A stretch of 64,000 nt of DNA from the sequence record PZ026127.1. One strand, given 5' to 3'. The notes under the pieces are model-generated. The model had not been told where the DNA came from. It saw only the letters and a list, made by a program, of their open reading frames with translations, and made no database searches. Position numbers and translations under genes: made by a program. The stretch comes from a phage. Shown one piece after another: positions 21,429-53,948 of this stretch. The number at the start of each line of letters is the position of its first letter. Within the stretch, counting starts at the first letter, position 1.

Positions 21429-21460
21429 GTTTACTTTCCTGGATAGCCGTGATACTATAG
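21429..21460 (+). promoter_or_regulatory. T4-type early promoter cassette (GTTTAC -35, TACTAT -10)
   Basis: GTTTAC at 21429, 16-17 bp spacer, GATACTATAGCCCTATCAA core shared with 9 other cassettes. Confidence 0.65.
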
Positions 21461-21494
21461 CCCTATCAAAACAAATGAGTGATTGGAGAATAAA

Positions 21495-21680
21495 ATGAAA
21501 CGTTGTGAATTAATTAGAAATGTTACTGCACTGGCCGCTGTTACCGCTTTTGGCTTTAGTATGTTTGCAGGATTCATGCTCGATATGCTTTCAACTTCCG
21601 AGAATATAATCTCTTTAGTAGTGGCATTTTTAATTGGTTCAATTTCTTTTGTTATGGATAAAATCTCTAAAGGTGAGTAA
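21495..21680 (+). CDS. small hydrophobic protein
   Basis: 61 aa, ATG 21495 (ORF-track start is a TTG); predicted TM segments; downstream of promoter. Confidence 0.5.
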   Translation: MKRCELIRNVTALAAVTAFGFSMFAGFMLDMLSTSENIISLVVAFLIGSISFVMDKISKGE

Positions 21681-21681
21681 A

Positions 21682-22062
21682 ATGTATAAAGTGTATGCAG
21701 ATTATCAGGCAAATCCATCTGAAAAACCAGATTGTCAAATTGGGTGGGCACACGACACCCTGCTTGAGGCGGTAGATAAAGCCCAGGAATTAGGGTATAG
21801 TTATGTGGATATTGTTCAACCCAATGGGACCGTTATTACACTTGAAGAATTCAAGAATATCAAAACAAACTTTTTGCTCTTTGCGGGTGATAACTATTAC
21901 CCTCGTGGCGGTTATGCCGACTTAATCGCAAAGGCCGCTACTGAAGATGAACTGCGCGATATCATTAAAGAAAATGAGAATAACCCTCTTTACGGTTCCA
22001 ATCGTTTTGACTGGTGGCAGATTGTTAATGCTAATACCCATACTATTGTAGACGAGGGTTAA
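21682..22062 (+). CDS. hypothetical protein
   Basis: 126 aa from internal ATG after GGTGAG RBS (ORF-track start 21634 overlaps upstream gene). Confidence 0.55.
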   Translation: MYKVYADYQANPSEKPDCQIGWAHDTLLEAVDKAQELGYSYVDIVQPNGTVITLEEFKNIKTNFLLFAGDNYYPRGGYADLIAKAATEDELRDIIKENENNPLYGSNRFDWWQIVNANTHTIVDEG

Positions 22063-22353
22063 ATGCTATACGTTAAGGTTACTAATCCAGAGAATGGATA
22101 TAATTCAGACCAGGTTGCAGCAGAGCTACTGATTCGCAACTTTGGCAAAGGTGCTGTGCTTGATGTCCAACAGGTTAATATTGGTCGTAGTTCAAGCGAC
22201 GTTAAACTAAAAGTTAATGGTCGCCGTTATAATTCTGTTAACTTTACTTTCTACACCGCAACTGAAAACGGATTGATCGAATACGACATCTTTAAAAATC
22301 CTTTGAAGATTGCTTCTATTAAACTTGATTACATTAATATGTGGCCACAATGA
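22063..22353 (+). CDS. hypothetical protein
   Basis: 96 aa ORF, ATG directly after upstream stop (TAAATG). Confidence 0.55.
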   Translation: MLYVKVTNPENGYNSDQVAAELLIRNFGKGAVLDVQQVNIGRSSSDVKLKVNGRRYNSVNFTFYTATENGLIEYDIFKNPLKIASIKLDYINMWPQ

Positions 22354-22390
22354 ATCAAATTTGACCAGACTATTCCTAAAAATAGTAATA

Positions 22391-22415
22391 TGCTTTAAGA
22401 GTAATGTGTTATTAT
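22391..22415 (+). promoter_or_regulatory. candidate MotA-dependent middle promoter
   Basis: MotA-box-like TATGCTTTA at 22389-22397, 12 bp spacer, -10 TATTAT at 22410; overlaps 8-bp inverted repeat AGAGTAAT/ATTACTCT. Confidence 0.45.
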
Positions 22416-22532
22416 TACTCTAACATTATTAAGTAACCCTCTATTACCAAAGGTTCTTCCCTCAAAGAGCCTTTCATAATAGACAAGGTCTATTAATCAA
22501 ACTTACTTTACTTAATTTTATTTGAGGTGTTT

Positions 22533-22799
22533 ATGTTAGTATTAAAATTAGCTTTTTACGACCCAGAAACCAAGACAACAACTACCAAACGTTGTTCTAT
22601 TTCATATGAATGTCAATTTGGCGAAGTTGAGACTGATGGCGAGCCCTTTATGGCAATTGCCGATAGCACATTCGCTAAACCAAAAATAATTCCACTAGTT
22701 AACGCTGCGGCTTATCTGGTTGCTCCTGAAGAAATGACTTATCATACAATTCAGCACATGGCTAAAGATGATAATGCTCCTGCTGGATTTGTAGTTTGA
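22533..22799 (+). CDS. hypothetical protein
   Basis: 88 aa from ATG 22533 (ORF-track start is a GTG); GAGGTG RBS. Confidence 0.5.
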   Translation: MLVLKLAFYDPETKTTTTKRCSISYECQFGEVETDGEPFMAIADSTFAKPKIIPLVNAAAYLVAPEEMTYHTIQHMAKDDNAPAGFVV

Positions 22800-22804
22800 T
22801 TTAA

Positions 22805-22875
22805 GGCCCTGTAGCTGGACGGTCGAGCGAGCGACTCATAATCGCTGGATGGTGGTTCGATTCCACCCAGGGCCA
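22805..22875 (+). tRNA. tRNA-Met (anticodon CAU; could also be a lysidine-modified Ile reader)
   Basis: hand fold: 7-bp acceptor GGCCCTG/CAGGGCC, anticodon stem AGCGA/TCGCT with loop CTCATAA, T-arm GGTGG-TTCGATT-CCACC, discriminator A. Confidence 0.85.
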
Positions 22876-22916
22876 TATTTTGAGAACATAAATACTCTTA
22901 GAAATAGGAGATATTT

Positions 22917-23582
22917 ATGTTCCATTACACTTATAAAATAACAAACAAAATTAATAATAAAATCTATATAGGTGCCCATTCAACCGAAAATTTGAATGAT
23001 GCATATTTTGGTTCCGGTAAACTCTTGAAAAGGGCCCAGGCCAAATACGGTATAGAAAATTTCTCTAAAGAAATATTAGAGTTCTTTGACGATAAAATCT
23101 CTATGTTTGAGTCAGAAAAGAATATTGTGACTGAAGAGTTTTTAAAGCGCCCCGATGTTTATAATTTGAAATTAGGCGGTGAAGGTGGTTGGGACCATTT
23201 AAACACCGAAGAATATTTAGATAAAAAGAAAGAAGCTTCCTTAAAAGGAGTTGCCGCTTTTAAAACCAGATTTGAGAACGACCCAGACCTTAAAGAAAAA
23301 TATCGTAAAATGGGTTCAGAAAGGTTTAAACAACTTTGGGATAATCCTAAGTATAGAGAGAAATTTTCAAATACTAAATCTTTCTTGGGTAAGACCCATT
23401 CAGATGAAACCAAAAATAAAATGAAAGAATCTCACGCCAGAAATAAACACCAACAAGGTGAAAATAATTCCGGATATGGAAAAATGTGGATTCATTCTTT
23501 AGAAGAAAAAGTTTCTAAACGTATTAACAAAACGGATATTATTCCTGAAGGTTGGAATAAAGGCCGTAAAATAAAATTTTGA
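22917..23582 (+). CDS. segB: GIY-YIG homing endonuclease (Seg-like) in tRNA cluster
   Basis: 221 aa; N-term YTYKITNKINNKIYIGAHS (GIY-x10-YIG variant), C-terminal NUMOD-like GKTHSDETKNKMKESH; lies between two tRNA genes like T4 segB. Confidence 0.75.
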   Translation: MFHYTYKITNKINNKIYIGAHSTENLNDAYFGSGKLLKRAQAKYGIENFSKEILEFFDDKISMFESEKNIVTEEFLKRPDVYNLKLGGEGGWDHLNTEEYLDKKKEASLKGVAAFKTRFENDPDLKEKYRKMGSERFKQLWDNPKYREKFSNTKSFLGKTHSDETKNKMKESHARNKHQQGENNSGYGKMWIHSLEEKVSKRINKTDIIPEGWNKGRKIKF

Positions 23583-23587
23583 ATTAC

Positions 23588-23662
23588 GTCCCGCTGGTGT
23601 AATGGATAGCATACGATCCTTCTAAGTTTGCGGTCCTGGTTCGATCCCAGGGCGGGATACCA
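23588..23662 (+). tRNA. tRNA-Arg (probable anticodon UCU), CCA encoded
   Basis: hand fold: acceptor GTCCCGC/GCGGGAT (one G-U), T-arm CCTGG-TTCGATC-CCAGG, anticodon loop CTTCTAA, 3' ACCA; anticodon stem has one mismatch. Confidence 0.7.
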
Positions 23663-23901
23663 AATGAAGACTATTATATAGTCAAGCCGTCGTATGAAGA
23701 CTGATTACCAGCATTCACCGGCGCAACAAACAAGAAACCGGGTCGCTACCGGTAAGTCGTCGGACTGATGTTCCCTGTTTAAGGACTGACATTAATAAAT
23801 CTTTACGATTTGTTGATGTCCCCTTATATCACAGCAGAAACGGCGCACCGAATTATCGATTCGAGGAAATATCTTTGCCGTAAGCCGAGTAGCGTTTTTG
23901 A

Positions 23902-23993
23902 CGGAACGTTCGGATATGGTCGAGATATGGCCTTTTAAAAATATTGAGTGGCGTCAACTACTTAATAACCGGGTTCGAATCCCGGCGTTTCGT
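23902..23993 (+). ncRNA. tRNA-like element / candidate small stable RNA
   Basis: 7-bp acceptor-like pairing CGGAACG/CGTTTCG enclosing a canonical T-arm CCGGG-TTCGAAT-CCCGG; D and anticodon arms could not be folded confidently. Confidence 0.3.
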
Positions 23994-24044
23994 ACAAACA
24001 CTTGCCTTAGCAGGTGGAACCCCGACAAGGTTGCCGCAAGGCAT

Positions 24045-24073
24045 AGCCCCTTCCGAAAGGTTGGGGCTTTTTG
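24045..24073 (+). terminator. intrinsic terminator
   Basis: AGCCCC...GGGGCU hairpin followed by UUUUUGG. Confidence 0.7.
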
Positions 24074-24113
24074 GCATAATAAATAGATAAGTTAATTAAC
24101 TTAGGAAATAACA

Positions 24114-24578
24114 ATGAAAACTTACAATGAATTTTTGACCGAACAATCTAGTTCAGATGTAAAAGCCGCCGCGATTGCAGCAATTCAAGCAGGTAAATAT
24201 TCTTACAAAGACGCCTCTGATGAAGAACGTTTCCGTTTTATTAAAGATTTTAAAGCCGAAGGTTTTACTAATGCTAATACTGTTAGCCGAGTTTTTAAAA
24301 GCCTAGCTGCATCAGGTGAATTGTTCCAGAAAGCCACAGGTAAAGCACCTGCGTCAAAAGCGGACCCTAAAGCCGCTCAAGAAAAAAATATCGCCAAAGG
24401 AATTATTTCTAAGTATGAAGCAATTCTTAAAGAGCTTTTAGTAATCAAAACAGAAGGCCAGAAACTGGCACGAGCACATAGCTTCAAAGATAATCCGCAT
24501 GCTCACGACTTAGAGTATGTTGAAGATATTCAGAAAATCATCAAAGACCGTATCTGGTCTGCTAAACAAATCAAATAA
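24114..24578 (+). CDS. internal head protein with capsid-targeting sequence
   Basis: 154 aa; N-term MKTYNEFLTE (CTS + LTE cleavage motif); strong RBS AGGAAATAACAATG. Confidence 0.7.
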   Translation: MKTYNEFLTEQSSSDVKAAAIAAIQAGKYSYKDASDEERFRFIKDFKAEGFTNANTVSRVFKSLAASGELFQKATGKAPASKADPKAAQEKNIAKGIISKYEAILKELLVIKTEGQKLARAHSFKDNPHAHDLEYVEDIQKIIKDRIWSAKQIK

Positions 24579-24585
24579 CGAAAGC

Positions 24586-24606
24586 CCCGTCTGGGGTTTT
24601 TTGGTT
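24586..24606 (+). terminator. intrinsic terminator
   Basis: AAAGCCCC-GUCU-GGGGUUUUUUGG directly after IP gene. Confidence 0.75.
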
Positions 24607-24692: not shown

Positions 24693-24722
24693 AGGCCCTT
24701 CCGAAAGGTTGGGCCTTTTTTG
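24693..24722 (+). terminator. intrinsic terminator (duplicate of the 24045 module)
   Basis: AGGCCC-UUCCGAAAGGUU-GGGCCU + U7; shares CCCTTCCGAAAGGTTGGG with 24048-24066. Confidence 0.7.
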
Positions 24723-24745: not shown

Positions 24746-24776
24746 GTTTACTCTTTCGTAGAACATGATACTATAG
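24746..24776 (+). promoter_or_regulatory. T4-type early promoter cassette
   Basis: GTTTAC at 24746, -10 TACTAT at 24769, shared TGATACTATAGACCTATCAA core. Confidence 0.65.
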
Positions 24777-24809
24777 ACCTATCAAAACAACAGTGTGAAG
24801 GAGAGTAAA

Positions 24810-25073
24810 ATGGATAATTATGGTGAAGTGTTTAATTTCTTTATGAAATGTGTTCCGGAAGAATTTGGTGCTACAGTTAACGATATTAAAGTTATCGGTC
24901 CTGAACACCCAGTGTATGAAACCTATGCAGTAATGGGTAATGAAGATGGACAGTGGTATACAATTAAAGTTGTGATTAATATGTTCTCAGCTGAAGGCTA
25001 CGCCAAATCGTCTACCAAAGTTTACCATGATAACGATTTTGATGCGGAAGATTATTTCAATAATATGAAATAA
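24810..25073 (+). CDS. hypothetical protein
   Basis: 87 aa from ATG 24810 (ORF-track start is a GTG); AGGAGAG RBS. Confidence 0.55.
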   Translation: MDNYGEVFNFFMKCVPEEFGATVNDIKVIGPEHPVYETYAVMGNEDGQWYTIKVVINMFSAEGYAKSSTKVYHDNDFDAEDYFNNMK

Positions 25074-25131
25074 AATGTTTACATGGGCCCATGATTAAGA
25101 TATTATGAGCCCATAATTTGAGGAGAACATA

Positions 25132-25530
25132 ATGAATATCGAAGATAAAGAAATGCAAGAGTTGTATAATTCATTAACACCTGAACAACAAAAATATGCC
25201 AAAGAATTAGAGAAAGCCCTTGCTTTCAACTTGGCAAAAACTGATTGGGCCGCGATGTATGAAGAAAAAACTAGATTAGAACTTGAAGCTGCTGAGAGAA
25301 ATGAATGGATTGTCGAAACCAAGATTTCTGATGGTGGTTGCTCTGTTGAGGTGTCTGCTGTAATTAAAGGTACTCATGGCGAAAAATCATGGGGCTGGCA
25401 TAATGAAACAAACAAATGTATTGTTCTCTCAACGTCAAAAACTTATGGCCAAAGGGCCCCTGTATCCAAAGCTATTATTAAGCAAGCTCAATGGGAAGCC
25501 AATGAAATCTGCCTCGCAAAAATGAAATAA
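25132..25530 (+). CDS. hypothetical protein
   Basis: 132 aa; RBS GAGGAGAACATAATG. Confidence 0.6.
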   Translation: MNIEDKEMQELYNSLTPEQQKYAKELEKALAFNLAKTDWAAMYEEKTRLELEAAERNEWIVETKISDGGCSVEVSAVIKGTHGEKSWGWHNETNKCIVLSTSKTYGQRAPVSKAIIKQAQWEANEICLAKMK

Positions 25531-25534: not shown

Positions 25535-25564
25535 GTTTACAAACCTCAGAGGACAGGGTATAAT
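25535..25564 (+). promoter_or_regulatory. sigma70-type early promoter (TTTACA-17-TATAAT)
   Basis: GTTTACA at 25535, 17-bp spacer, TATAAT at 25559; 7-bp inverted repeat GAGGACA/TGTCCTC brackets the -10. Confidence 0.7.
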
Positions 25565-25606
25565 GTCCTCATGGATTATAAATCTTAATCAACTGAAGGA
25601 AATACT

Positions 25607-26200
25607 ATGAACACTTTAAAGAAAATCGTTGAATTCATCCGTTCTAAACTGGGTACCGCAATGACTCAGAACCTGTCAATCGAAGACCAATACACCAAAG
25701 CGGCTTCTACCCTGATTGATAAAATCACTGAACTCCAGACTGCCCATGTTAAGTCTGTGAATGAAGAAAAACGTATTCGTGCTTTGGCTAATGAAAAAGA
25801 CCAGCTCGCTGCTTCTAAAGAACGCGAAATTCGTAAACTGATTGCCGAAGGCGCTGATGTCCAGGTACATGCTAAACTTGGCCTCCTTTATCGTCGTACA
25901 GCTACTCAGCTTCGTAAGAAAGCCGATGATTATATCGAAATGCGTAATGAAATTAAACTGAAGGTTAAGGAACTTGATGACTCTCGTCAGGAACTGGCTG
26001 TTAAGCTCGAGTACATCCGTGAAACTCGTAATATGGCTGCCCTTGGTATTGCTACTGCCGATGATGTTGTTGAAATCGCTGCACTGACTAAGATTGATAT
26101 TGAAGACACCCTACTGCGTGTAGAAACGTTTAAAGGCCCACAAGTTGGAATGGATACGACTTCTGCTGATATCGAAGACTACATTAATTCACTTAAGTAA
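25607..26200 (+). CDS. coiled-coil protein, possibly PspA/IM30-like
   Basis: 197 aa, continuous heptad-like charged pattern; family assignment tentative. Confidence 0.5.
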
Positions 26201-27427: not shown

Positions 27428-27709
27428 ATGATGAATGATTACCATAAAAATAAAGAATTGGCTGAAGCAGTAAATGATATCCATAAAGCTATTCGTCGTG
27501 CCGAGGAAATTGCAAACAAATATGAGACTCATTTTAATATATACCCTGCTCGCGGTATGGGCGGTGACTATTATTCTCCTGGCGCCTTGAAAGCCGACCT
27601 TGCCCACTGGGAAGAATACGGTGAAGCTCAGTACGCTATTGTAAACCAACATGATTACACTACCAGCCTAGAAAATGGCGGTTGGGTGTCCTCTTCTTCT
27701 GAATGTTAA
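27428..27709 (+). CDS. small protein, paralog 2 of 4 (C-terminal WVSSSSEC)
   Basis: 93 aa; RBS TAAGGAAAC...ATG; conserved motifs as paralog 1. Confidence 0.6.
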   Translation: MMNDYHKNKELAEAVNDIHKAIRRAEEIANKYETHFNIYPARGMGGDYYSPGALKADLAHWEEYGEAQYAIVNQHDYTTSLENGGWVSSSSEC

Positions 27710-27718
27710 GGAAATAAA

Positions 27719-27931
27719 ATGACTATTGATGAAATTGAAAACCAAATCCGTGAATTAGTACGTAAAGGCCAGTCTGTGGCTGACGAAACGGGTGAAGAGT
27801 TCCGTGTTTCTGGTCGTGGAGAATACATTTCTCCAAAGAACCCGGAATATGATGATTACGAATGGGTCCGTGATGATTACGGCATTCCTGATGGTGATGG
27901 TTTCTGGTTTACTTCTTCTATGTCTTGCTAA
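27719..27931 (+). CDS. small protein, paralog 3 of 4 (C-terminal WFTSSMSC)
   Basis: 70 aa; RBS TAAGGAAATAAAATG. Confidence 0.6.
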   Translation: MTIDEIENQIRELVRKGQSVADETGEEFRVSGRGEYISPKNPEYDDYEWVRDDYGIPDGDGFWFTSSMSC

Positions 27932-29030: not shown

Positions 29031-29049
29031 GTTTACTGAGGAAAATATT

Positions 29050-30009
29050 ATGATGTTAGTTATTGGTTCTCGTGCACTGCACCACGCTGGTCTGATTGAA
29101 AGTAAGCATATCGAAAATTCTGATTGGGATTTCATTGCCGACCAAGGCTCATGGAATCACTTTAAAGCACGTATGTTCGGCGCCCATGTACACGTTGACA
29201 ATCCTGATGTCCAGGCTTTCAAATGTATGCATAATGGTAAAGAAACCTATTTTGAAGCTTATATCGTTCGTGCTCTGACTAACGTACGAGAAATTACCGG
29301 TGAGCTTCAAGACGAAGATTTCACTTCAAGCTATCGTCTCCTGAAATATGCTGAAAATCATATTAAAAAGGACCGTCTTACTGGTTTCTATTGGGCAACC
29401 CCTGATATCTGTCTGGCTATCAAAACCTCCCATCGTTTCCTTAAGAATAATCCGTTCTTCTTGAAAACCATGTCCCACATCAAATACCTTCGTAATAAAG
29501 GTATCACCCTTAACGAAGAACTCCAGGAAATTATGTTGCAACGTCAAAAAGAAACGTTGAGCTATTCCCACCCTAAATTGGATGTAAACAAATCATCGTT
29601 CTTTAATGATACCATTTATACGCTGGACCATGACTCTATTCATGAAGCAGTGGCATTGGCAGGGCGCCCTGCATATACCTTTTATATGAAGGAAGGTTCT
29701 GAAGTCATGACCTCTCGTGAGAAGTTCGAGGCTTTGCCTGAAGCTATTAAACTGGCTGGTGTATATGAAGAAACTTGTGTCCTGGCACTAGAACGTTCAC
29801 AGGTTCCTAATGACTTCAATATTTCACCATCATTAAGTTTCTATATGGCCCTTGAGAAAGTGTGCACCTCAATCACTTCAGGTTGGTTCCGCACTTATGC
29901 ATGGGAAAACTACCAAGCTGTGGTTAATATGTACAAGACTTTAGGTGAAAACGACTACATTGAACGGTTTAAGCGTAACCAACATTTAATTCGTCCTTTC
30001 GAAAAATAA
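29050..30009 (+). CDS. hypothetical protein
   Basis: 319 aa from ATG 29050 after GAGGAAAATATTATG. Confidence 0.6.
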   Translation: MMLVIGSRALHHAGLIESKHIENSDWDFIADQGSWNHFKARMFGAHVHVDNPDVQAFKCMHNGKETYFEAYIVRALTNVREITGELQDEDFTSSYRLLKYAENHIKKDRLTGFYWATPDICLAIKTSHRFLKNNPFFLKTMSHIKYLRNKGITLNEELQEIMLQRQKETLSYSHPKLDVNKSSFFNDTIYTLDHDSIHEAVALAGRPAYTFYMKEGSEVMTSREKFEALPEAIKLAGVYEETCVLALERSQVPNDFNISPSLSFYMALEKVCTSITSGWFRTYAWENYQAVVNMYKTLGENDYIERFKRNQHLIRPFEK

Positions 30010-30022
30010 TTGCACAAAACAG

Positions 30023-30052
30023 TGTACAAGGTCTATAGGTGTGATACTATAG
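30023..30052 (+). promoter_or_regulatory. early promoter cassette variant
   Basis: TGATACTATAGACCTATCAA core with degenerate -35 (TGTACA); 9-bp inverted repeat GGTCTATAG/CTATAGACC at 30030-30055. Confidence 0.5.
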
Positions 30053-30087
30053 ACCTATCAAAACAACAGAGTGAAATGGAGAATAAA

Positions 30088-30300
30088 ATGAAACTTTCTA
30101 ACCAAGCAATCAACATGTTAAACGAAGTTCGTGCAGCTGGTGCTAAATGCCTGATGGTTAACACTCGTGACGGTGACCTTCGTCAAGCATTTGGTGAATT
30201 GAAATCTGCTGACCTGGTTAAATGTTCAGTTGGTATTGGTAACGCACTTCGTGTATCCTTATCTCCTAAAGGTAAAATGTACTTTTTCAACAAAAAGTAA
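30088..30300 (+). CDS. hypothetical protein
   Basis: 70 aa from ATG 30088 after GGAGAATAAAATG. Confidence 0.5.
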   Translation: MKLSNQAINMLNEVRAAGAKCLMVNTRDGDLRQAFGELKSADLVKCSVGIGNALRVSLSPKGKMYFFNKK

Positions 30301-32293: not shown

Positions 32294-32782
32294 ATGGATA
32301 TTTTTGATATGTTACGTCAAGACGAAGGTCTTGATTTAAATCTTTATAAAGACACTGAAGGTTATTGGACTATTGGTATTGGCCAATTGATTACTAAGAA
32401 CCCATCTAAAGACGTTGCTCGCGCTGAACTTGATAAGCTTATGGGTCGAGTTTGTAATGGTCGTATTACTATGGCTGAAGCCGAACAACTCTTTAACCGG
32501 TCGGTTGAAAATGCTCGTAGAGCTATTCTGCGTAATCCTAAATTGAAACCTGTTTATGATGTATTGGACGAAGTTCGTCGTTGTGCTTTAATTAACATGG
32601 TCTTCCAAATGGGTGAAGCAGGTGTAGCAGGGTTCACTAACTCTTTACGTATGCTCCAACAGAAACGTTGGGACGATGCGGCAGTTAACCTGGCTCAATC
32701 CCGTTGGTATAAACAAACTCCAAATCGTGCTAAGCGCGTGATTTCAACATTTAAAACCGGCACATGGGCTGCTTATAGATAA
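32294..32782 (+). CDS. e: endolysin (T4 lysozyme e)
   Basis: 162 aa; [26 protein letters not shown]...[31 protein letters not shown] matches T4 lysozyme; catalytic E11, D20, T26 present. Confidence 0.95.
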
Positions 32783-32787
32783 AAGCA

Positions 32788-32818
32788 GTTTACATCTCCT
32801 AGAATTGTGATAGTATAT
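32788..32818 (+). promoter_or_regulatory. T4-type early promoter cassette
   Basis: AAAGCAGTTTACATCTCCT... with -10 TAGTAT about 16 bp downstream. Confidence 0.55.
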
Positions 32819-33466: not shown

Positions 33467-33491
33467 TAAAGCTGATACTTGATAAAAAGCA

Positions 33492-33542
33492 GTTTACATC
33501 TCCTGTAGTCATGATACTATAGACCTATCAACTACAGGAGAT
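33492..33542 (+). promoter_or_regulatory. early promoter cassette with SD-complementary spacer
   Basis: GTTTAC 33492, -10 TACTAT 33515; 11-nt ATCTCCTGTAG (33498-33508) is exact reverse complement of CTACAGGAGAT (33532-33542) containing the denV SD. Confidence 0.7.
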
Positions 33543-33548
33543 TAAAAA

Positions 33549-33956
33549 ATGACTCGTATCAACCTTACCTTAGTATCTGAATTGGCTGACCAACACTTAA
33601 TGGCTGAATACCGTGAACTCCCACGGATTTTTGGTGCGGTTCGCGAACGTATTGCCAAAGGGCAAGGCTTCTCTGATATCCCTAAAGACTTCCGCCTTGG
33701 TGCAGGGCACGTCAAGTTCTTTTATGACAAAATTGGATTTTTGTTCTTGCGACAAAATGCAATAATTGAGGAACTTCTGAAGCGTGGTTACCAGATTCAA
33801 AATACCCATGTAGACGTAGCGGATATTCCATTACGGCTCATGAACGATTTCACCCCATCCGAAGCTGATATAGCTTTAAGCCAAGCTCGTCTGGACGAAA
33901 AAATTGCACAGCGTCCTACCTGGTACAAACATTACGGCAAGGCTATTTACGCTTAA
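33549..33956 (+). CDS. denV: endonuclease V, pyrimidine-dimer DNA glycosylase
   Basis: 135 aa; [26 protein letters not shown]...LGAGHV.FFYDK...[24 protein letters not shown] matches T4 DenV. Confidence 0.95.
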
Positions 33957-36293: not shown

Positions 36294-36344
36294 GTTTACA
36301 TCTCCTGTAGACGTGGTACTATAGACCTATCAACTACAGGAGAT
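36294..36344 (+). promoter_or_regulatory. early promoter cassette with SD-complementary spacer
   Basis: GTTTAC 36294, -10 TACTAT 36317; ATCTCCTGTAG (36300-36310) complementary to CTACAGGAGAT (36334-36344) containing the regB SD. Confidence 0.7.
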
Positions 36345-36350
36345 TACAAA

Positions 36351-36809
36351 ATGTCAGAAATTAATTCAGAAGTATTCATCCGCCGCAATAAATTACGTCG
36401 TCAGTTCGAAACCGAATTCCGTGAACTGAATACGTCCATCAAAAAAGCCGCCATCAAGAGCGGAGTCCCAGCCTTCTTTATTAAGTACTCTAATCACTTG
36501 TTGGACCGTGCTATCCAACGTGAAATCGACGAAAAATACGTTTTTGCTTTATTCAAGCAACTCCATAACCATGTTAAAGAAATTCATGAATTTTTAATCC
36601 AGGAACCTCTACCTGATGTAGAATCCGAAATTGTCCCTGGTAAAGTGTATCGTCCATTGCGTCTCGAAATTACCGATAAAACCTTATGGCTAGGTATGAC
36701 AGTAGACCGTAAACATCCTGATAAAGGATATTCCCTTAAATGTCGTATGGCATTTGTTAACTCTAAACGTTTAGAAGGTAAAACCAGCACGAAAGTAATC
36801 TATCTTTAA
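36351..36809 (+). CDS. regB: endoribonuclease RegB
   Basis: 152 aa; ...EVFIRRNKLRR.FE.EFR.....I..........YS.HLLDRAIQREIDE.YVF.LF... matches recalled T4 RegB (153 aa). Confidence 0.9.
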   Translation: MSEINSEVFIRRNKLRRQFETEFRELNTSIKKAAIKSGVPAFFIKYSNHLLDRAIQREIDEKYVFALFKQLHNHVKEIHEFLIQEPLPDVESEIVPGKVYRPLRLEITDKTLWLGMTVDRKHPDKGYSLKCRMAFVNSKRLEGKTSTKVIYL

Positions 36810-40172: not shown

Positions 40173-40175
40173 TCA

Positions 40176-40204
40176 AAGGTCTCACTTCGGTGGGACCTTT
40201 TTTC
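40176..40204 (+). terminator. intrinsic terminator
   Basis: GGUCUCAC-UUCG-GUGGGACC (8-bp stem, one G-U) followed by U6. Confidence 0.8.
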
Positions 40205-40212: not shown

Positions 40213-40243
40213 GTTTACATCCTCTAGGAACATGATACTATAG
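40213..40243 (+). promoter_or_regulatory. T4-type early promoter cassette
   Basis: GTTTAC 40213, -10 TACTAT 40236, TGATACTATAGACCTATCAA core; 9 nt after terminator (PeSL-like). Confidence 0.7.
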
Positions 40244-40269
40244 ACCTATCAACTAATGAGGAGAACAGT

Positions 40270-40506
40270 ATGAAACTTACAAGTACTACGGTTTCATTAG
40301 AATATGAAATCAACGGTCGTATCCTTGAGATTAAGATATTCGACGACCGAAGTATCTTCGCTGATTATCGAGGATACAGAATTCGTCTAGAAAAGGACGA
40401 GCTCAAGGAACCATGGCTCCTTAAAGACACATTAAAGGGTTGTGGATGTAAACTGAAGACTACCCAAGCCCAAGAATTAATTTCTACTATCAACAAATAC
40501 TGGTGA
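40270..40506 (+). CDS. hypothetical protein
   Basis: 78 aa; RBS GAGGAGAACAGTATG. Confidence 0.55.
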   Translation: MKLTSTTVSLEYEINGRILEIKIFDDRSIFADYRGYRIRLEKDELKEPWLLKDTLKGCGCKLKTTQAQELISTINKYW

Positions 40507-43060: not shown

Positions 43061-43082
43061 AAAAGGCCTTCGGGCCTTTTTT
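43061..43082 (+). terminator. intrinsic terminator
   Basis: AAGGCC-UUCG-GGCCUU followed by UUUUGGG directly after the NTase-like gene. Confidence 0.8.
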
Positions 43083-43101: not shown

Positions 43102-43132
43102 GTTTACACTCTCGTAGAGCATGTTATTATGG
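43102..43132 (+). promoter_or_regulatory. T4-type early promoter cassette
   Basis: GTTTACA 43102, 16-bp spacer, TATTAT 43125; 20 nt after terminator (PeSL-like). Confidence 0.65.
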
Positions 43133-43167
43133 ACCTATCAAATCTACTGAGTGAAATGGAGAATATA

Positions 43168-44148
43168 ATGTTAACTATCAAAATCAACAAAGGTGTCTAT
43201 CGCGGTAATGAAATCTCTGGTACGTTCATGAGTTCAGGTAAAACCTGGTTCCCTAATAAAATTCATGAATCTGAAGCTCACCTCGGTGATGGTAAGGTAT
43301 TCGTACAGATTGATGGTGTTGAACGTGGTGTATGGGTATTCAAATCTGATATCGAAACCGAAGGTGCTGAAGCTCCTGTAGTGGTTACCGAATCTTCTGA
43401 AGAAATGAAACACCGCATCAACAAACGTTTTAAAGTAATGAACATGATGACTAATGGAATCATCGATGGTAAAATTCGTTCCCTTATCATCTCTGGTGCC
43501 GCAGGTATTGGTAAAACATATTCTTTGGATAAAGCATTACAGAATGCCCACGAAAATGAAACTATCGAATATAAATCAATCAACGGAAAGATTAGTGGAA
43601 TCGGTCTTTACGAGCAGCTTTGGAATAACCGCGGCCCTAATAGTGTTCTTCTTATTGATGATGTTGATGTATTCTCTGATATGGATATCCTGAACCTGTT
43701 AAAAGCAGCATTGGATACCGGTGAAAAACGTAAGGTGTGCTGGAGCACTTCAAGTTCTTACCTCGATGATAAAAATATCGATAAAGAATTCGAATACGAA
43801 GGCACCATCGTGTTCATCACCAACGTTGATATCGACCGTGAATTAGAGCGCGGAACTAAACTTGCTCCACACCTCCAGGCTTTAGTATCTCGTTCAGTTT
43901 ACTTAGACCTCGGAGTTCACTCTAACGAAGAGATTATGGTCCGTGTTGAAGACGTTATCCTGTCCACTGATATGATGCAAAACCGTGGTCTGACTGATGC
44001 CGAGACTTATCAAGCACTGTCCTGGATGAAGGCTAATGTATCTCGTCTTCGTAACGTATCATTACGTACAGCTCTTTATCTGGCGGACTTCATTGCCACC
44101 GATAAAAATGACTGGAGCGAAATCGCTGAAGTTACACTTCTGAAATAA
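43168..44148 (+). CDS. AAA+ ATPase
   Basis: 326 aa from ATG 43168; Walker A GAAGIGKTYSL, Walker B VLLIDDVDVF, sensor-1-like IVFITN. Confidence 0.65.
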   Translation: MLTIKINKGVYRGNEISGTFMSSGKTWFPNKIHESEAHLGDGKVFVQIDGVERGVWVFKSDIETEGAEAPVVVTESSEEMKHRINKRFKVMNMMTNGIIDGKIRSLIISGAAGIGKTYSLDKALQNAHENETIEYKSINGKISGIGLYEQLWNNRGPNSVLLIDDVDVFSDMDILNLLKAALDTGEKRKVCWSTSSSYLDDKNIDKEFEYEGTIVFITNVDIDRELERGTKLAPHLQALVSRSVYLDLGVHSNEEIMVRVEDVILSTDMMQNRGLTDAETYQALSWMKANVSRLRNVSLRTALYLADFIATDKNDWSEIAEVTLLK

Positions 44149-44502: not shown

Positions 44503-44553
44503 GTTTACATCTCCAGTAGAAATGATACTATAGACCTATCAACTACTGGAGGT
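44503..44553 (+). promoter_or_regulatory. early promoter cassette with SD-complementary spacer (compensatory variant)
   Basis: GTTTAC 44503, -10 TACTAT 44526; ATCTCCAGTAG (44509-44519) pairs with CTACTGGAGGT (44543-44553); paired G/A and C/T changes relative to the 33492 and 36294 copies. Confidence 0.7.
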
Positions 44554-44557
44554 TATC

Positions 44558-45082
44558 ATGAACGCTAAAGATATTTTTTCACTGATTAATTTCAACAACG
44601 GTAATTTCAAATCTGAAAAACAAAGCAAGTTCTTTAACGACGTTGCTTGTGGTAATGAGATTACCGTATCTGGAGGAGAGATTTACAAAAGCCGTTGGAA
44701 CTGGATTGTTATCATCGATTCAGTTGGTATTGTAGAGCTCTATAAAAACACTAACAAAAAACGTACTCTTCACTGGAGTCGTGAAACCAATCAAGCTTAT
44801 CAAGCTGAACGTAACAAACGTTTAATGCCTACCGAATCTGACCTGGCAAACGTTAAATCTGATATCGCTTATTTCGATAATCTGATTGCTGAACAACAAG
44901 CAGTTATTGATAAGTTTGACGAAATCAAAGCTTGTAAAGAGATTCCTGAATTTATGCGGGAATCAGTAAACGAACAGTACGCCCTCACTTCAGGTCGTAT
45001 CGAGCAGTACAAATCACAACGAGCTGAACGCCAAGCTCTGCTTCATAAATTTGAAGAGCGTTTAAAGACGGTTCTCGCATAA
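44558..45082 (+). CDS. hypothetical protein
   Basis: 174 aa ORF. Confidence 0.55.
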   Translation: MNAKDIFSLINFNNGNFKSEKQSKFFNDVACGNEITVSGGEIYKSRWNWIVIIDSVGIVELYKNTNKKRTLHWSRETNQAYQAERNKRLMPTESDLANVKSDIAYFDNLIAEQQAVIDKFDEIKACKEIPEFMRESVNEQYALTSGRIEQYKSQRAERQALLHKFEERLKTVLA

Positions 45083-49512: not shown

Positions 49513-49575
49513 GCTCGGTGGAAAACTACCGAGCCAGAGGAACCTGTTTACAACGATTCCGAAATAGAGTATAAT
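49513..49575 (+). promoter_or_regulatory. stem-loop plus early promoter (PeSL-like)
   Basis: hairpin GCTCGGT/ACCGAGC 49513-49534, then GTTTACA 49546, 17 bp, TATAAT 49570. Confidence 0.65.
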
Positions 49576-50445: not shown

Positions 50446-50919
50446 ATGTTGCTGACTGGCAAGCTTTATAAAGAACAAAAAGAACAGATGTACAAAGAAC
50501 AACAGGGCTTGTGTTTAGTATGTAAACAGCATCTAAATACAGATGTTCAAAGTAACCACTTAGACCACTCTCATGATTTAGAAGGGTCACAAGCCGGACG
50601 AGTTCGTGGGTTGCTCTGTAATCTTTGTAATGCCTGGGAAGGGCGCAGCAGACACCAATTTGTACGCTCTGGTCTTAAAGGTCGTGGAAACGACTACCTC
50701 GAGTGTCTTAAAAATCTGGTTGCGTACCTCGAGAATGATTGCTCAAAGAATCCTATTCACCCTACCTTTGTAACTGACAAAACCAAAGAGTTCAGCAGGT
50801 TGGGTAAGGATGAAATGATTGCTGAAATGCTTTCGCATGGAATGACTTATAATGAATCTGATACTAAGAAACAAATGGTCGATTCGTTTAAAAAACAACT
50901 GAGGAAATCGCTTAAATGA
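50446..50919 (+). CDS. 49: endonuclease VII (Holliday junction resolvase)
   Basis: 157 aa; MLLTGKLYKE...C..C...LN.DVQ.NHLDH.H.L.G..AG.VRGLLCNLCNA.EG...H.F.RSGLKG.G.DYLE...NL..YL matches T4 gp49. Confidence 0.9.
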   Translation: MLLTGKLYKEQKEQMYKEQQGLCLVCKQHLNTDVQSNHLDHSHDLEGSQAGRVRGLLCNLCNAWEGRSRHQFVRSGLKGRGNDYLECLKNLVAYLENDCSKNPIHPTFVTDKTKEFSRLGKDEMIAEMLSHGMTYNESDTKKQMVDSFKKQLRKSLK

Positions 50920-51029
50920 TTAATTTTTATGCCTTAACCGAATCTATGAATGATATTATCCGGCGCATGGGTGTTGAGTATCCTGCTCAATGGTTATTTG
51001 TTGTAACTAATACATGGACTATCGTATGA
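50916..51029 (+). CDS. small hypothetical protein
   Basis: 37 aa ORF, ATGA overlap with gene 49 stop and with next gene. Confidence 0.3.
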   Translation: MINFYALTESMNDIIRRMGVEYPAQWLFVVTNTWTIV

Positions 51030-51241
51030 ACAAATTTCGTAATGCTGTTTCTGATATCCTGGCCAATATTACATTTGTCTTGTTTATCGTGTGCCTTTTA
51101 ATCCTGGTCGTCCCATTTGGATTGCTGTTTATGATTATTGGTGCCCTGAGTACTGAAAAAGGTCTTGAAGGGTCCGAGTTCGACAAACGAATCCAGGCTG
51201 TTCATAGTGTTATTGCAAAAATGATGAAGGTGAAAGAATGA
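51026..51241 (+). CDS. small membrane protein
   Basis: 71 aa from ATG 51026; one long hydrophobic helix. Confidence 0.5.
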   Translation: MNKFRNAVSDILANITFVLFIVCLLILVVPFGLLFMIIGALSTEKGLEGSEFDKRIQAVHSVIAKMMKVKE

Positions 51242-51534
51242 AACGTTTTGAAGAATATGTAGCTTTGAATTGGACCGCTTGGGACAAGTTTGGTGATGAT
51301 TGGTACTTCCATGACTGTGACCTGAACCCTGAATTCTTTAAAGGTAAGGAAGACGACCTCAAGGACATCTATGCTCTGTCAGAGATTCATGGTATTAAAC
51401 CTACTGTCTATTTCTCTTTTGATGATACCGGGTTCCTTATCCAGATTTACGTCCCATACGGAACTAATGAAGACGAAGTTCTAAAAACTTGGGACTACCA
51501 AGGAGTTATTTCCTGTGGACCAAAAGTTAACTAA
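51238..51534 (+). CDS. hypothetical acidic protein
   Basis: 98 aa ORF. Confidence 0.55.
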   Translation: MKRFEEYVALNWTAWDKFGDDWYFHDCDLNPEFFKGKEDDLKDIYALSEIHGIKPTVYFSFDDTGFLIQIYVPYGTNEDEVLKTWDYQGVISCGPKVN

Positions 51535-51832
51535 AATTGAGATTTACGGTATCCCTGAGACAGTCATGCGCTGTCCAGGGTGCATTGCTGTTCTATCGCT
51601 CCTAAATTCCCTTTCTATCCCACATACTTTCTATCCTGTGATTAATCAGACGCCGTCAGGCGCAGTATATGACAAGCCTCTTATAGTATCATTGGCCAAA
51701 CGTGCAGGCTTCAAGAGCTTAGCGATACGCTATCCTGCCATATTTGTCGATAATAAGAAAATAGAAAATATTCCTGCCTTCAAATCGCTTTTGATTGAAC
51801 TTGGTTATGACCGAGATTTAATTGAAGATTAG
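51515..51832 (+). CDS. redoxin-fold protein with CPGC motif
   Basis: 105 aa; probable GTG start after AGGAG; beta-strand KIEIYG followed by CPGC. Confidence 0.45.
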   Translation: MDQKLTKIEIYGIPETVMRCPGCIAVLSLLNSLSIPHTFYPVINQTPSGAVYDKPLIVSLAKRAGFKSLAIRYPAIFVDNKKIENIPAFKSLLIELGYDRDLIED

Positions 51833-51833
51833 T

Positions 51834-51885
51834 GTTTACTTCCTCTCCTCACGTGTTATAGTCTATCCTATCAACACATGAGGAG
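51834..51885 (+). promoter_or_regulatory. early promoter cassette with SD-complementary spacer
   Basis: GTTTAC 51834, -10 TATAGT 51857; CTCCTCACGTGTT (51845-51857) complementary (12/13) to AACACATGAGGAG (51873-51885) containing the SD. Confidence 0.65.
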
Positions 51886-51891
51886 AACATT

Positions 51892-52074
51892 ATGACTATC
51901 CAAGATAAAGAAATTAAAGCCGACCAGTATTATTTGGTAAATGGGCGTGCGGTTCGTGTAATTGCTGCTAGCGATTCAGACGTATGGTACCGTGTACTAG
52001 ACCATAGAAATATTCCATTGATGGTATGTGACCGTAGTTTGTTTTGTTCGATAGCTAAGGAAATTAAATTATGA
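51892..52074 (+). CDS. hypothetical protein
   Basis: 60 aa; RBS GAGGAGAACATTATG. Confidence 0.5.
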   Translation: MTIQDKEIKADQYYLVNGRAVRVIAASDSDVWYRVLDHRNIPLMVCDRSLFCSIAKEIKL

Positions 52075-52325
52075 GCCTGAAATTACACTCAATGAAAAAT
52101 ATCATTACCCTTAATCTGGATGATGAGCGCCTGATTTTTCTCACCGTCACTGATAAGAATATTGAAATCGCCAACGGCCCGAAAACTTATTGCTGTCCTG
52201 TTAAGAATTGGAAACGCGTAACATTTCTTACTCTGACCGAACGCCTGAAAGATATTAAGTTGGATTTGGATGTCAAAGATGTCCAATACATTAAAAATCT
52301 TATTGGATACAAACTGCTGAGGTAA
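52071..52325 (+). CDS. hypothetical protein
   Basis: 84 aa ORF. Confidence 0.5.
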   Translation: MSLKLHSMKNIITLNLDDERLIFLTVTDKNIEIANGPKTYCCPVKNWKRVTFLTLTERLKDIKLDLDVKDVQYIKNLIGYKLLR

Positions 52326-52327
52326 CT

Positions 52328-52621
52328 ATGGGTAAAACTATTCGTCGTAAAGAATTGTCTGTAAAAGATTTTTATTATTCCGGACGTCGTAAAGCACCGG
52401 ACGGCGTAAGTCAGGAACTGGTTGAAGAAAATATCTTCCGTTCCGACAAGTGGAAACGTATGCGCGGTGTTGATTCTGAAGTTAAGAACGAAATGAACCG
52501 CCAGCTTCGTAAAGAAGTGAGAAAGCTGAAAAAAGATGTTTACAATGACGATGAACCTGATTACAATACTTCTCATCGAGTTGCAAAACGTAAATCAAAC
52601 GAATGTTATCGTTATAGCTGA
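52328..52621 (+). CDS. hypothetical basic protein
   Basis: 97 aa ORF, K/R-rich. Confidence 0.5.
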   Translation: MGKTIRRKELSVKDFYYSGRRKAPDGVSQELVEENIFRSDKWKRMRGVDSEVKNEMNRQLRKEVRKLKKDVYNDDEPDYNTSHRVAKRKSNECYRYS

Positions 52622-52628
52622 GGAAAAT

Positions 52629-52760
52629 ATGAATATCAAACGAATGCTTTTTAAGCAAGGACTATACACTTTAAATGTTAGTCCAAAGGGCGATACAACC
52701 ACGTGGTCAGTAAATGACTGGATTAAATTCATTGATAAACACGGAAACTGGAAAATTTAA
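52629..52760 (+). CDS. small hypothetical protein
   Basis: 43 aa from ATG 52629 after GAGGAAAAT. Confidence 0.35.
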   Translation: MNIKRMLFKQGLYTLNVSPKGDTTTWSVNDWIKFIDKHGNWKI

Positions 52761-52961
52761 ATGAATCCTGAATCTAAATTATCACAGCGAATTGCTGAAG
52801 CTCGTCGTCAGTTCTTTGAAAATATGATAGCCCAAGGTATTGATGACGAAGTTTTTCTGAACTGGTTTTGGAACCACAAATATTCAAGTTGTTCAGGCGC
52901 TTTATTAATTTCAGCTGCATCTATGTACGAAGGCTGGAAAGGTGCAATGAGTCAAAAATAG
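52761..52961 (+). CDS. hypothetical protein
   Basis: 66 aa ORF. Confidence 0.45.
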   Translation: MNPESKLSQRIAEARRQFFENMIAQGIDDEVFLNWFWNHKYSSCSGALLISAASMYEGWKGAMSQK

Positions 52962-52990
52962 TTTACAAACTCTTGGGACCAGAGTATAAT
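52961..52990 (+). promoter_or_regulatory. sigma70-type early promoter (TTTACA-17-TATAAT)
   Basis: GTTTACA 52961, TATAAT 52985; inverted repeat GGGACC/GGTCC brackets the -10. Confidence 0.7.
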
Positions 52991-53029
52991 GGTCCTACGG
53001 ATTATAACTTTAAAACTGAGGAAATTATT

Positions 53030-53359
53030 ATGTCACAAGCTATTAAAAACGTACTGAACTCTTTCGCTTTCGATAAAGTAAACGAACTGATGAATACCGG
53101 TTTTGTGACTCCTCAGGTTCTTGACCAATGGGTTGCTGAACTGCTGCCAATCATGCACTCTAAAGACCAGAAAATTGGTAAGAACGGTATTCGTGAAATC
53201 CTGGTTCAATATATCCTTGATGAATTCGATGTCGCTGCCTTTGGTGTTGAATCCAAAGCTTGGTGCCCTGGTGAAATCACGGATAAAACTATCCGTCGTA
53301 TGAAAAACCAACGTAAGAAAAAATTCGTTGACCTGAAAATTGTTAAGGCAGCGAAATGA
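53030..53359 (+). CDS. hypothetical protein
   Basis: 109 aa from ATG 53030 after GAGGAAATTATTATG. Confidence 0.55.
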   Translation: MSQAIKNVLNSFAFDKVNELMNTGFVTPQVLDQWVAELLPIMHSKDQKIGKNGIREILVQYILDEFDVAAFGVESKAWCPGEITDKTIRRMKNQRKKKFVDLKIVKAAK

Positions 53360-53622
53360 TTAAAATAAAACTCTCTAATTACGATAAAAACTTGGAAATG
53401 ATTGCTATGAAAGAAGAACTCTTGAATGATGTCCGCTTTACCGGTTATGCAGTTCAATTTAATGGTGATGGGACTCTCCAGATTGAGGGTGACCACTTTA
53501 TCATCGAATACGAATTTAAACAGTACTGGCTTTATGCGAAGGATGAAGTTGGCGGTGTTGATTACGTCGACGAGTTCGATAACCTAGATGATGCCTTGGA
53601 AGGAGCTCGATTCCTACAATGA
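53356..53622 (+). CDS. hypothetical protein
   Basis: 88 aa ORF. Confidence 0.5.
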   Translation: MIKIKLSNYDKNLEMIAMKEELLNDVRFTGYAVQFNGDGTLQIEGDHFIIEYEFKQYWLYAKDEVGGVDYVDEFDNLDDALEGARFLQ

Positions 53623-53882
53623 AACCCATATCCACCACCCTCGCCTACGAAGGTCTCGGATTTTTCTTAATAGATAACTGTATGGATGTTGAGTTTGTTT
53701 GTGGTGAGACTTCTTTAGTATGGAAGTCTCATATTTCCAAATACAACCATCGCGAATATCCAGGTCTTTTTAAAGAATTTTGTGGATATATGTCTGAACA
53801 TGGATGTACTGATACAATTTCTTATTCCGAGTTCACACAAATCCTTGAAACCGTATTTCAGGCTTATTGCTTACTCCGTTGA
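53619..53882 (+). CDS. hypothetical protein
   Basis: 87 aa ORF. Confidence 0.5.
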   Translation: MKPISTTLAYEGLGFFLIDNCMDVEFVCGETSLVWKSHISKYNHREYPGLFKEFCGYMSEHGCTDTISYSEFTQILETVFQAYCLLR

Positions 53883-53917
53883 TGCTTTAAAAGGGTCTTC
53901 AAATACTATGATATAAT
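53883..53917 (+). promoter_or_regulatory. candidate promoter for gene 55 (MotA-box-like plus TATAAT)
   Basis: TGCTTTA at 53883; -10 candidates TACTAT 53904 / TATAAT 53912; TGATATAATAGACCTATGA resembles the early cassette core. Confidence 0.45.
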
Positions 53918-53948
53918 AGACCTATGATTTGAGTTATCTGAGGTAACA

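Follow-up and report, generated by a model that had tools for sequence, protein, structure and literature searches.

Recurrent early-promoter cassettes of a JS98-like T4-type phage, whose paired spacers probably insulate them from upstream transcription

Results

The DNA analyzed here, referred to as the window, is one strand of 64,000 nucleotides (nt) from sequence record PZ026127.1. It belongs to a Dhakavirus, a JS98-like phage of the T4 type showing 92-98% identity to PSD9, WG01, QL01, JS10 and JS98, and its orientation is opposite to that of the usual T4 map. Past about 18 kb, every gene lies on the + strand and, named by their T4 equivalents, the genes follow the order 4, 2, 3, 1, 57, the internal-protein (IP) and tRNA loci, the e region, ipIII, denV, regB, tk, rI, the nrdC.x open reading frames (ORFs), 49, 55, 47/46 and 45/44/62/regA/43. 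The subject of this study is a dispersed repeat in this region, with the core sequence TGATACTATAGACCTATCAA, and the short cassettes, probably early promoters, in which it lies (all features given below by window coordinates are on the + strand). Eight copies of the core were found at up to 3 mismatches, all on the + strand, while 0.01 would be expected by chance and none of 100 shuffled sequences reached 8. Five copies are exact (24766, 30042, 33512, 40233 and 44523), and the others have 1 mismatch (21450 and 36314) or 3 (43122). A preliminary description of this DNA had already reported a near-exact repeat of about 20 bp, with coordinates that prove right to within 1-3 bases. All eight copies fall within the plastic 21.4-44.6 kb stretch (the IP, e, denV, tk and nrdC region), and the genes 3' of them are a trna.4-like gene, an e.8-like ORF, another small ORF, denV, regB, an ORF after rI.-1, nrdC.10 and nrdC.8. 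The same search of the window at up to 3 mismatches revealed no copies in the late-gene part or among the replication genes 47-43.

The core corresponds to the predicted extended -10 (TGn), -10 (TACTAT), discriminator and start site of early promoters served by the host sigma-70. Its layout is TG-n-TACTAT-AGACC-TATCAA, followed by a leader of 15-26 nt with a GGAG-type Shine-Dalgarno (SD) sequence and then by ATG. TG precedes the -10 in all eight copies, the -10 conforms to TAnnnT, and a GTTTAC-type -35 stands at a spacing of 17±1 nt; GTTTAC itself is found 17-18 nt 5' of seven copies, in keeping with the earlier remark that it is the usual upstream element, and the cassette at 30022 has GTGTAC instead. 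All cassettes share the same composite structure, namely an A-rich UP-like tract, GTTTAC, a 17-nt spacer, the core, the SD sequence and ATG. Conservation does not stop at the -10 but takes in the discriminator and the first bases to be transcribed. The identification of the repeats as early-promoter cores is borne out by the GTTTAC-N17/18-TACTAT geometry and by orthologous sites in T4, where early promoters are predicted at the same places as the window cassettes of denV, regB and the nrdC.8-like gene. Activity immediately upon infection, with no need for phage protein synthesis, would be a trait of this class as predicted from the promoter sequence. Of the variant copies previously proposed, that at 51855 is a genuine early promoter (GTTTAC, N17, TATAGT), that at 43122 stands with its 3 mismatches, and that at 53909 has 4 mismatches and no GTTTAC.

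When related phages were searched for the motif, each Dhakavirus genome in IMG/VR was found to have 8-12 copies of the exact 20-mer, all of them on one strand. A 72-nt cassette query matched 14-16 places per Dhakavirus genome and, more weakly, 679 phage records from several T-even genera. An exact scan of viral contigs had first made the motif look specific to Dhakavirus, but this was rejected, as the T4 denV promoter has the exact 20-mer with the same flanks and the same hairpin. T4 has eleven further sites at up to 4 mismatches (commonly TGGTACTATACAACTATCAA), and RB14, RB69 and a Klebsiella T4-like phage carry versions with 1-2 mismatches. Because the core is shared with these phages, the motif is taken to be a T-even early-promoter consensus. 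T4 early promoters are known to have extra consensus beyond the -35, TGn and -10 (PMC2988021), including a preference for C at -3 to -1 (PMC1524935).

The 17-nt spacer that separates the -35 from the -10 shows complementarity to an adjacent part of the cassette, and three patterns recur. In class A, the spacer sequence AGGTCTATAG is complementary to CTATAGACCT, a segment made up of the 3' half of the -10 and the discriminator. The class A spacer tracks the discriminator from one sequence to another (GGTCT/AGACC, GGGCT/AGCCC, AGGCT/AGCCT, GGCCT/AGGCC and GATAGGGTA/TACCCTATC). In class B, the partner of ATCTCCTGTAG is CTACAGGAGAT in the leader, TGATA/TATCA forming an inner stem, and the arms occur in the variants CCAGTAG/CTACTGG, CCATTAG/CTAATGG and CCTCATG/CATGAGG. 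A third spacer type (..CTTTAAACA), recognized by inspection only, pairs with the -35 (TGTTTA/TAAACA).

Embedded hairpins fold with z-scores of -2.3 to -4.85 in five of the nine window cassettes (30022, 33492, 36294, 44503 and 51834). The GTGTAC cassette (30022-30090, exact core) has the class A hairpin, with a minimum free energy (MFE) of -15.4 and z = -2.32. The denV cassette (33492-33551, exact core) has the class B hairpin (MFE -20.7, z = -4.85), and its helix encloses the -10 and +1, the SD sequence GGAG being contained in the 3' arm. At regB (36294-36353, core TGGTAC..), a class B hairpin covers the SD sequence GGAG (z = -3.51), and at nrdC.8 (44503-44560, exact core) class B arms ATCTCCAGTAG / CTACTGGAGGT (z = -2.88) are compensatory, in the class B alignment, relative to those of denV and regB. 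In the variant cassette (51834-51894), with GTTTAC, N17, TATAGT and a CTATCAA start region, UCUCCUCAcGUG pairs with CACaUGAGGAGA (MFE -22.8, z = -4.84), and the SD sequence is paired in the MFE fold.

Two alignments, A1 for class A and A2 for class B, were made from rows picked for in-register pairing, many of them orthologues. With 21 distinct sequences in class A, 87.6% of the cells are paired versus 26-49% with slid partners, and three changes are two-sided; with 15 distinct sequences in class B, 97.9% are paired versus 28-51%, five changes are two-sided, and none of 500 shuffles matches this. The cells that are not Watson-Crick are mostly sense-strand G.U (19, versus 4 A.C). Two checks are independent of the in-register selection. 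First, the regB promoters of five genera (T4, Mosigvirus, Kanagawavirus, Mosugukvirus and the window) keep a helix of 9-15 bp between the spacer and the SD region even though the arms differ. Second, shuffling the spacer alone weakens the fold of the region from -35 to +24, with a mean z of -2.4 over the 18 window promoters analysed and of -2.6 over 38 from T4. The ESCO10 denV promoter (OM386655.1, 18470-18570) has a different -10 and core (TGTGATATGATACTCTCATACCGACACAGGAGAT), yet its ATCTCCTGT/ACAGGAGAT pairing is kept. The hairpin of the spacer with the core or the SD region, which the preliminary description had missed, accounts for part of the extra conservation; pairing provides a functional reason for conservation inside the promoter spacer and the discriminator.

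The effect of this pairing on the SD sequence was predicted for RNA reading through from upstream and for transcripts starting at the cassette. Over 74 distinct cassettes, the predicted probability that the SD sequence is unpaired is 0.29 in read-through RNA versus 0.64 in the cassettes' own transcripts (p=1e-10), and versus 0.41 in read-through RNA when the spacers are shuffled (p=7e-5). The values are bimodally distributed, and in about 34 of the 74 the SD sequence is almost fully buried. In T4, the values are 0.41 for read-through RNA and 0.70 for own transcripts (p=3e-5), and about 13 of 40 promoters stay under 0.1, but the T4 spacer-shuffle control is flat overall (0.41 versus 0.41). Within the window, the predicted values for read-through and own transcripts are 0.00 and 0.38 at denV, 0.00 and 0.66 at regB, and 0.00 and 0.52 at nrdC.8, while leaders folded from +1 are predicted to be unstructured. 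A universal role in hiding the SD sequence was rejected, given the fractions of cassettes and T4 promoters that do so.

The four other window cassettes were each found with an intrinsic terminator 10-40 nt upstream. These are the IP/trna.4 cassette (21429-21497; GTTTAC, N18, TACTAT, core variant AGCCC, a leader with GGAGAATAAA, and ATG at 21495), which has no strong embedded hairpin (z = +1.37); the e.8-like ORF cassette (24746-24812; exact core, z = 0.02), in which the spacer CUCUUUC pairs weakly with the SD region GAAGGAG (predicted probability unpaired 0.17 in read-through versus 0.87 in own transcripts); the cassette after the rI.-1 region (40213-40272; exact core, z = 0.18), with a weak CCUC/GAGG pairing alone (0.05 versus 0.72); and the nrdC.10 cassette (43102-43170; core variant TGTTATTATGGACCTATCAA, z = 0.14). 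The respective terminators are a 7-pair stem with a T-run (21389-21408); a terminator-like hairpin and T-run, AGGCCC..GGGCCTTTTTT (24693-24722), called by eye from the sequence as its loop exceeds the length covered by the terminator scan; an 11-pair stem with a T-run (40175-40200); and a terminator after nrdC.11 given by the scan (43061-43080). The latter two had been proposed previously, at 40176 and 43061, and the first two are additional, whereas a third proposed terminator, at 49513, lacks a T-run.

This exclusion is also seen in the larger set. Strong embedded hairpins (MFE at or below -14) occur in none of the 20 cassettes with an upstream terminator but in 25 of the 54 without one (p=6e-5), or, counted per locus, in about 0 of 7 versus about 9 of 17. 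Hairpin and terminator therefore look like alternative means of insulation from upstream transcription. The embedded hairpins themselves were considered as canonical intrinsic terminators, and this was rejected as they have no U-run.

Several leaders bear on cleavage by RegB. The strong RegB/S1 site has the consensus GGAGRAYARAA (PMC3014915), which is fitted by GGAGAATAAAA at 21429 and 30022 and, as GGAGAATATAA, at 43102. A near-identical leader of 24-26 nt (AACAACAGAGTGAAATGGAGAATAAAATG and variants) precedes four different genes (21470-21497, 30062-30090, 43142-43170 and 24786-24812). In this shared leader, GAGTGAA is conserved 5' of GGAGAATAAAA.

To relate the cassettes to gene content, the window was compared with seven relatives (WG01, PSD9, JS98, JS10, CLBP2, VR5 and ESCO10), giving 76 breakpoint clusters. 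Breakpoints lie at six of the eight core-cassette junctions versus 37 of 74 promoterless ones, which is not significant (odds ratio 3, Fisher p=0.17, enrichment having been tried under several definitions); for any early promoter versus promoterless junctions of at least 40 nt, the counts are 11/16 versus 12/19 (p=0.5). About half of all gene junctions in this region are breakpoints. Hence the expected coincidence of cassettes with synteny breakpoints is observed, but it is indistinguishable from that of other junctions in a very plastic region, and the proposal that the cassettes specifically mark module boundaries was not supported.

Some individual cases are nevertheless clean. A 20-nt direct repeat, AAAAGCAGTTTACATCTCCT, stands on either side of the ipIII gene, at 32781-32800 (in the ipIII promoter) and 33485-33504 (in the denV cassette); ipIII is missing in CLBP2 and ESCO10, and their junction falls inside this repeat. 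At the nrdC.11/nrdC.10 junction, the window has one cassette and five relatives have a tandem pair flanking an extra small ORF (a 54-nt repeat overlap, with +257 nt in four relatives and +543 nt in ESCO10), and different ORFs stand behind the same terminator-promoter unit in different phages. JS10 lacks the e.8 ORF, its junction lying at the SD sequence of two neighbouring cassettes. On a smaller scale, the spacer modules of orthologous promoters differ from phage to phage while the flanks are unchanged (AAGGTCTATAG versus AATGCCTTTAAACA), and the spacer and leader of JS98 nrdC.8 are hybrid; judging from these sequences, the differences point to exchange of short patches that have the -35 and the core as their limits. 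Non-promoter repeats of 20-43 nt bound ORF insertions or deletions (indels) relative to JS98, JS10, CLBP2, VR5 and ESCO10 as well, at 27682-27724 and 29033-29052, where they consist of a conserved gene end, SD sequence and start codon of tandem small paralogous ORFs. Thus genes are gained and lost through several kinds of short homology, of which the cassettes are one. This tempers the claim that cassettes define module boundaries, as other short repeats serve too.

Discussion

We consider it likely that the repeats are the early promoters of a JS98-like phage arranged in short cassettes, that the paired spacer insulates each cassette against read-through transcription with class B in addition hiding the SD sequence, and that the cassettes also provide homologies for shuffling. 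The 5' arm of the hairpin lies in the spacer that separates the -35 from the -10, and therefore it is never part of the cassette's own transcript and is found only in RNA coming from upstream. The hairpin would act in this read-through RNA and would insulate the cassette as a terminator would. In class B, it would bury the SD sequence, which is also the RegB cleavage motif, and the gene would be translated and cut by RegB only from transcripts of its own promoter, which would start inside the loop and would lack the 5' arm. RegB cleaves early SD sequences at GGAG, and folding of the RNA protects them (PMC3014915); with class B, RegB attack would therefore be limited to promoter-proximal transcripts. 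At the level of the genome, the recurring cassette of about 20-50 nt might serve as one of several short homologies for the gain, loss and swapping of small genes, in shuffling of the promoter-early stem-loop (PeSL) type. Action in RNA is favoured by the G.U bias, the tie of the helix to the SD sequence and the exclusion between hairpin and terminator.

Several points weigh against this interpretation. The start sites and the read-through RNA of this phage are predicted from its sequence. As alignment rows were selected and include many orthologues, the counts of paired cells and the p-values for SD accessibility and for hairpin-terminator exclusion overstate the number of independent events. 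Four of the nine window cassettes (21429, 24746, 40213 and 43102) fold no better than shuffles, the embedded hairpins are without a U-run, and the breakpoint enrichment is not significant. Class A spacers and those pairing with the -35 leave the SD sequence untouched, and a single mechanism cannot cover all copies. Furthermore, in class B the AGACC-TATCAA segment sits in the loop and is yet nearly invariant (CTATCAA is also conserved in T4), which pairing does not explain; start-site selection, promoter escape or a role of the RNA 5' end are possible reasons for this.

Three other explanations were weighed. One is that the near-identity results mainly from recent duplication and gene conversion among paralogous cassettes and not from function. 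This fits the small repertoire of spacer modules, which recurs with different leaders and genes, and the module swaps between orthologous promoters, including the JS98 nrdC.8 hybrid. However, the exact 20-mer and hairpin are found at the orthologous denV promoter of T4, which belongs to a different genus, and copy-specific variants are stable across relatives. Therefore conversion does happen, as the spacer-patch swaps show, but it cannot be the main cause of conservation, and we rejected ongoing homogenisation in that role; as a full account, it seems improbable.

The repeats might also be plain strong promoters, with the core kept for maximal strength, the inverted repeats incidental and no special part in shuffling. 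Indeed, the core holds the elements recognized by RNA polymerase (TGn, -10 and a purine start), T4 early promoters are described in reviews as having consensus in addition to the -35 and -10 (PMC2988021), orthologues inherit the variants peculiar to single copies (AGCCC at the IP locus, TGGTAC at regB), which would be expected under independent purifying selection, and the lack of significant breakpoint enrichment is as this explanation would have it. It does not account for the compensatory changes in both hairpin classes and across five genera at regB, for the spacer-shuffle z of about -2.5, for the mutual exclusion of strong hairpins and terminators or for indel junctions that lie exactly within cassette repeats, and we regard it as quite unlikely. 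Action at the DNA level, in which cruciforms or hairpins would be cut or bound by phage recombination proteins (for example endonuclease VII) or an unknown factor, to become active recombination sites, as in the mobile-cassette proposal, or to modulate promoter melting, is in line with the speculation of Arbiol 2010 that the stem-loop may be targeted by a DNA-binding recombination protein, with the mini-circles detected in RB49/phi1 (PMC2839356), with the several indel junctions within cassettes and with the frequent position of the -10 in the loop, but it seems quite unlikely, given that the sense-strand wobble bias would destabilise the other cruciform arm, that the arms vary too widely for a common protein site beyond the promoter, that the class B tie to the SD sequence and the absence of hairpins at terminators make sense only for RNA, and that indels also use non-palindromic repeats.

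The insulated-cassette interpretation is to be compared with what is known of PeSLs. The likeness noted in the preliminary description is upheld, as the A-tract, -35, -10, stem-loop or upstream terminator, SD sequence and ATG match the published layout (PMC2839356, PMC4122927). Like the PeSLs of RB49/phi1 (PMC2839356), the window cassettes are dispersed, same-strand and intergenic, combining an A-rich tract and an early promoter with a stem-loop that overlaps the -35 and -10 or stands between them, an SD sequence and ATG; both sets are concentrated in hyperplastic regions 5' of small ORFs, with ORF indel junctions in cassettes. The stem-loop is represented in the window by an embedded hairpin in five of nine cassettes and by an upstream intrinsic terminator in the other four. 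According to Arbiol 2010, transcription is attenuated by the PeSL stem-loop, and recombination between cassettes gives rise to mini-circles (PMC2839356). There are differences too. RB49 has near-perfect TTGACA/TATAAT promoters and stems of G-runs and C-runs, whereas the window has the T-even GTTTAC/TGnTACTAT and AT-richer arms; the stems of RB49 were taken to be terminators and tested as such, and SD hiding, spacer covariation and hairpin-terminator exclusion were not described there; and mini-circles and reporter activity were shown for RB49/phi1, while the window cassettes are described from sequence.

A further likeness is to the PeSLs of T4 and PST and the T-even IP-locus promoter elements (Comeau 2014, PMC4122927), which have a promoter of the same family (TTTACW..N17..TAYWAT), occur in the same regions (IP loci, nrdC and 49 region) and have the same proposed role as linkers for small-gene swapping. 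The IP-locus elements (Repoila et al. 1994, as cited in PMC2839356) were called PeSL analogues by the PeSL authors. However, the PST/T4 stems were drawn just 5' of the promoter, whereas in the window, as in T4 on re-examination, one arm is formed by the spacer itself and the -10 is enclosed by the helix. In the PeSL work, JS98-type phages receive only a passing mention, for the gene 43 locus. In large part, then, our results confirm that JS98-type phages carry promoter-plus-hairpin cassettes already described in other T4-type phages. Nor do the cassettes differ in kind from T4 early promoters and RegB-sensitive leaders (PMC2988021, PMC3014915), with their UP/-35/TGn/-10 'uber' promoters and GGAG followed by an A-rich stretch, of which they form a Dhakavirus set.

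Hairpins that hide a ribosome-binding site and have an internal promoter are known at the T4 genes e, soc and 49 and at I-TevI (PMC3014915). Both there and, by prediction, here, long transcripts fold the SD sequence or AUG into a helix and a promoter in the 5' arm or loop yields translatable RNA; at denV, regB and nrdC.8, the SD sequence is predicted to be paired from upstream and free from the internal promoter (0.00 versus 0.38-0.66). The known cases use late promoters (gp55, TATAAATA) and thereby delay expression, but the window cassettes have early, sigma-70 promoters and are not late. The effect of an early internal promoter would be to confine expression to the immediate-early burst, decoupled from upstream transcription. 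Unlike the e, soc, 49 and I-TevI cases as set out, the hidden SD sequence is here also a RegB target. Because the internal promoter is of the early type, the cassette would work like this family without being a described member of it. We found no earlier description of an early promoter in an SD-hiding hairpin, the 2010 review giving only the late-promoter cases (older subscription T4 literature was outside the search), and the nested SD-hiding helix is the one aspect that goes beyond the accessible literature.

A broader proposal, to which we give somewhat less than even credence, is that among T-even phages ranging from T4 to Dhakavirus, early promoters are in large part nested in an RNA hairpin of which the spacer is the 5' arm, so that translation and exposure to RegB would be gated by where the transcript starts, and the hairpin would be a general substitute for a terminator. 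If true, the nested promoter hairpin would carry the gene e / I-TevI principle beyond a few late genes and into the immediate-early class, and it may help to explain how early expression collapses after early-promoter shut-off despite persisting read-through RNA. This bears on the temporal confinement of immediate-early expression, a step still described in reviews as incompletely understood. The prediction can be tested in T4: at denV, regB and nrdC.8, as at roughly a dozen further early genes, the spacer would be the anti-SD arm of a conserved, covarying helix, and therefore only promoter-proximal transcripts should be translated and cut by RegB.

Additional observations

Three early promoters in the window do not have the core but have inverted repeats of their own, located at 25077-25134 (ATGGGC..GCCCAT around the -10, z = -3.48), 25535-25609 (GAGGAC..GTCCTC flanking TATAAT, z = -4.12) and 52961-53032 (GGGACC..GGTCC flanking TATAAT, z = -2.86). 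The core-like variant 5' of gene 55 (53909-53928, TGATATAATAGACCTATGAT) has an equivalent upstream of T4 gene 55 (TGATATAATAGATCTATGAA, KJ477685.1, ~38074), with a similar GGTCT-containing stretch upstream of it. At the window site, TGCTTTA is separated by 22 nt from TATAAT, or by 14 nt if TACTAT is taken as the alternative -10, while a MotA-type promoter needs 11-13 nt. The hairpin GCTCGGTggaaaacTACCGAGC (49513-49534) is directly 5' of an early-type promoter at 49546; it was rejected as a terminator, as the scan did not score it terminator-like, and it may be a further promoter-adjacent stem-loop rather than a canonical terminator.

A search of Rfam returned two tRNAs only and no known RNA family at any cassette. 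Between tRNA-Met (22805-22875) and tRNA-Arg (23588-23662) lies a 221-aa ORF of the GIY-YIG/NUMOD3 homing-endonuclease type (22917-23582), placed much like segB in the tRNA cluster of T4. A segment of 765-851 nt containing it is missing in six of the seven relatives, the exception being ESCO10, where the alignment gap covers a larger replaced segment. Another ORF, of 188 aa (59980-60546), matches PHROG 314 (homing endonuclease), with no Pfam hit, and occupies an insertion of about 590 nt between genes 45 and 44 that is absent in all seven relatives. Finally, in the GenBank record of ESCO10 (OM386655.1), the product names look displaced relative to the gene order, the regB orthologue being labelled 'putative baseplate hub'.

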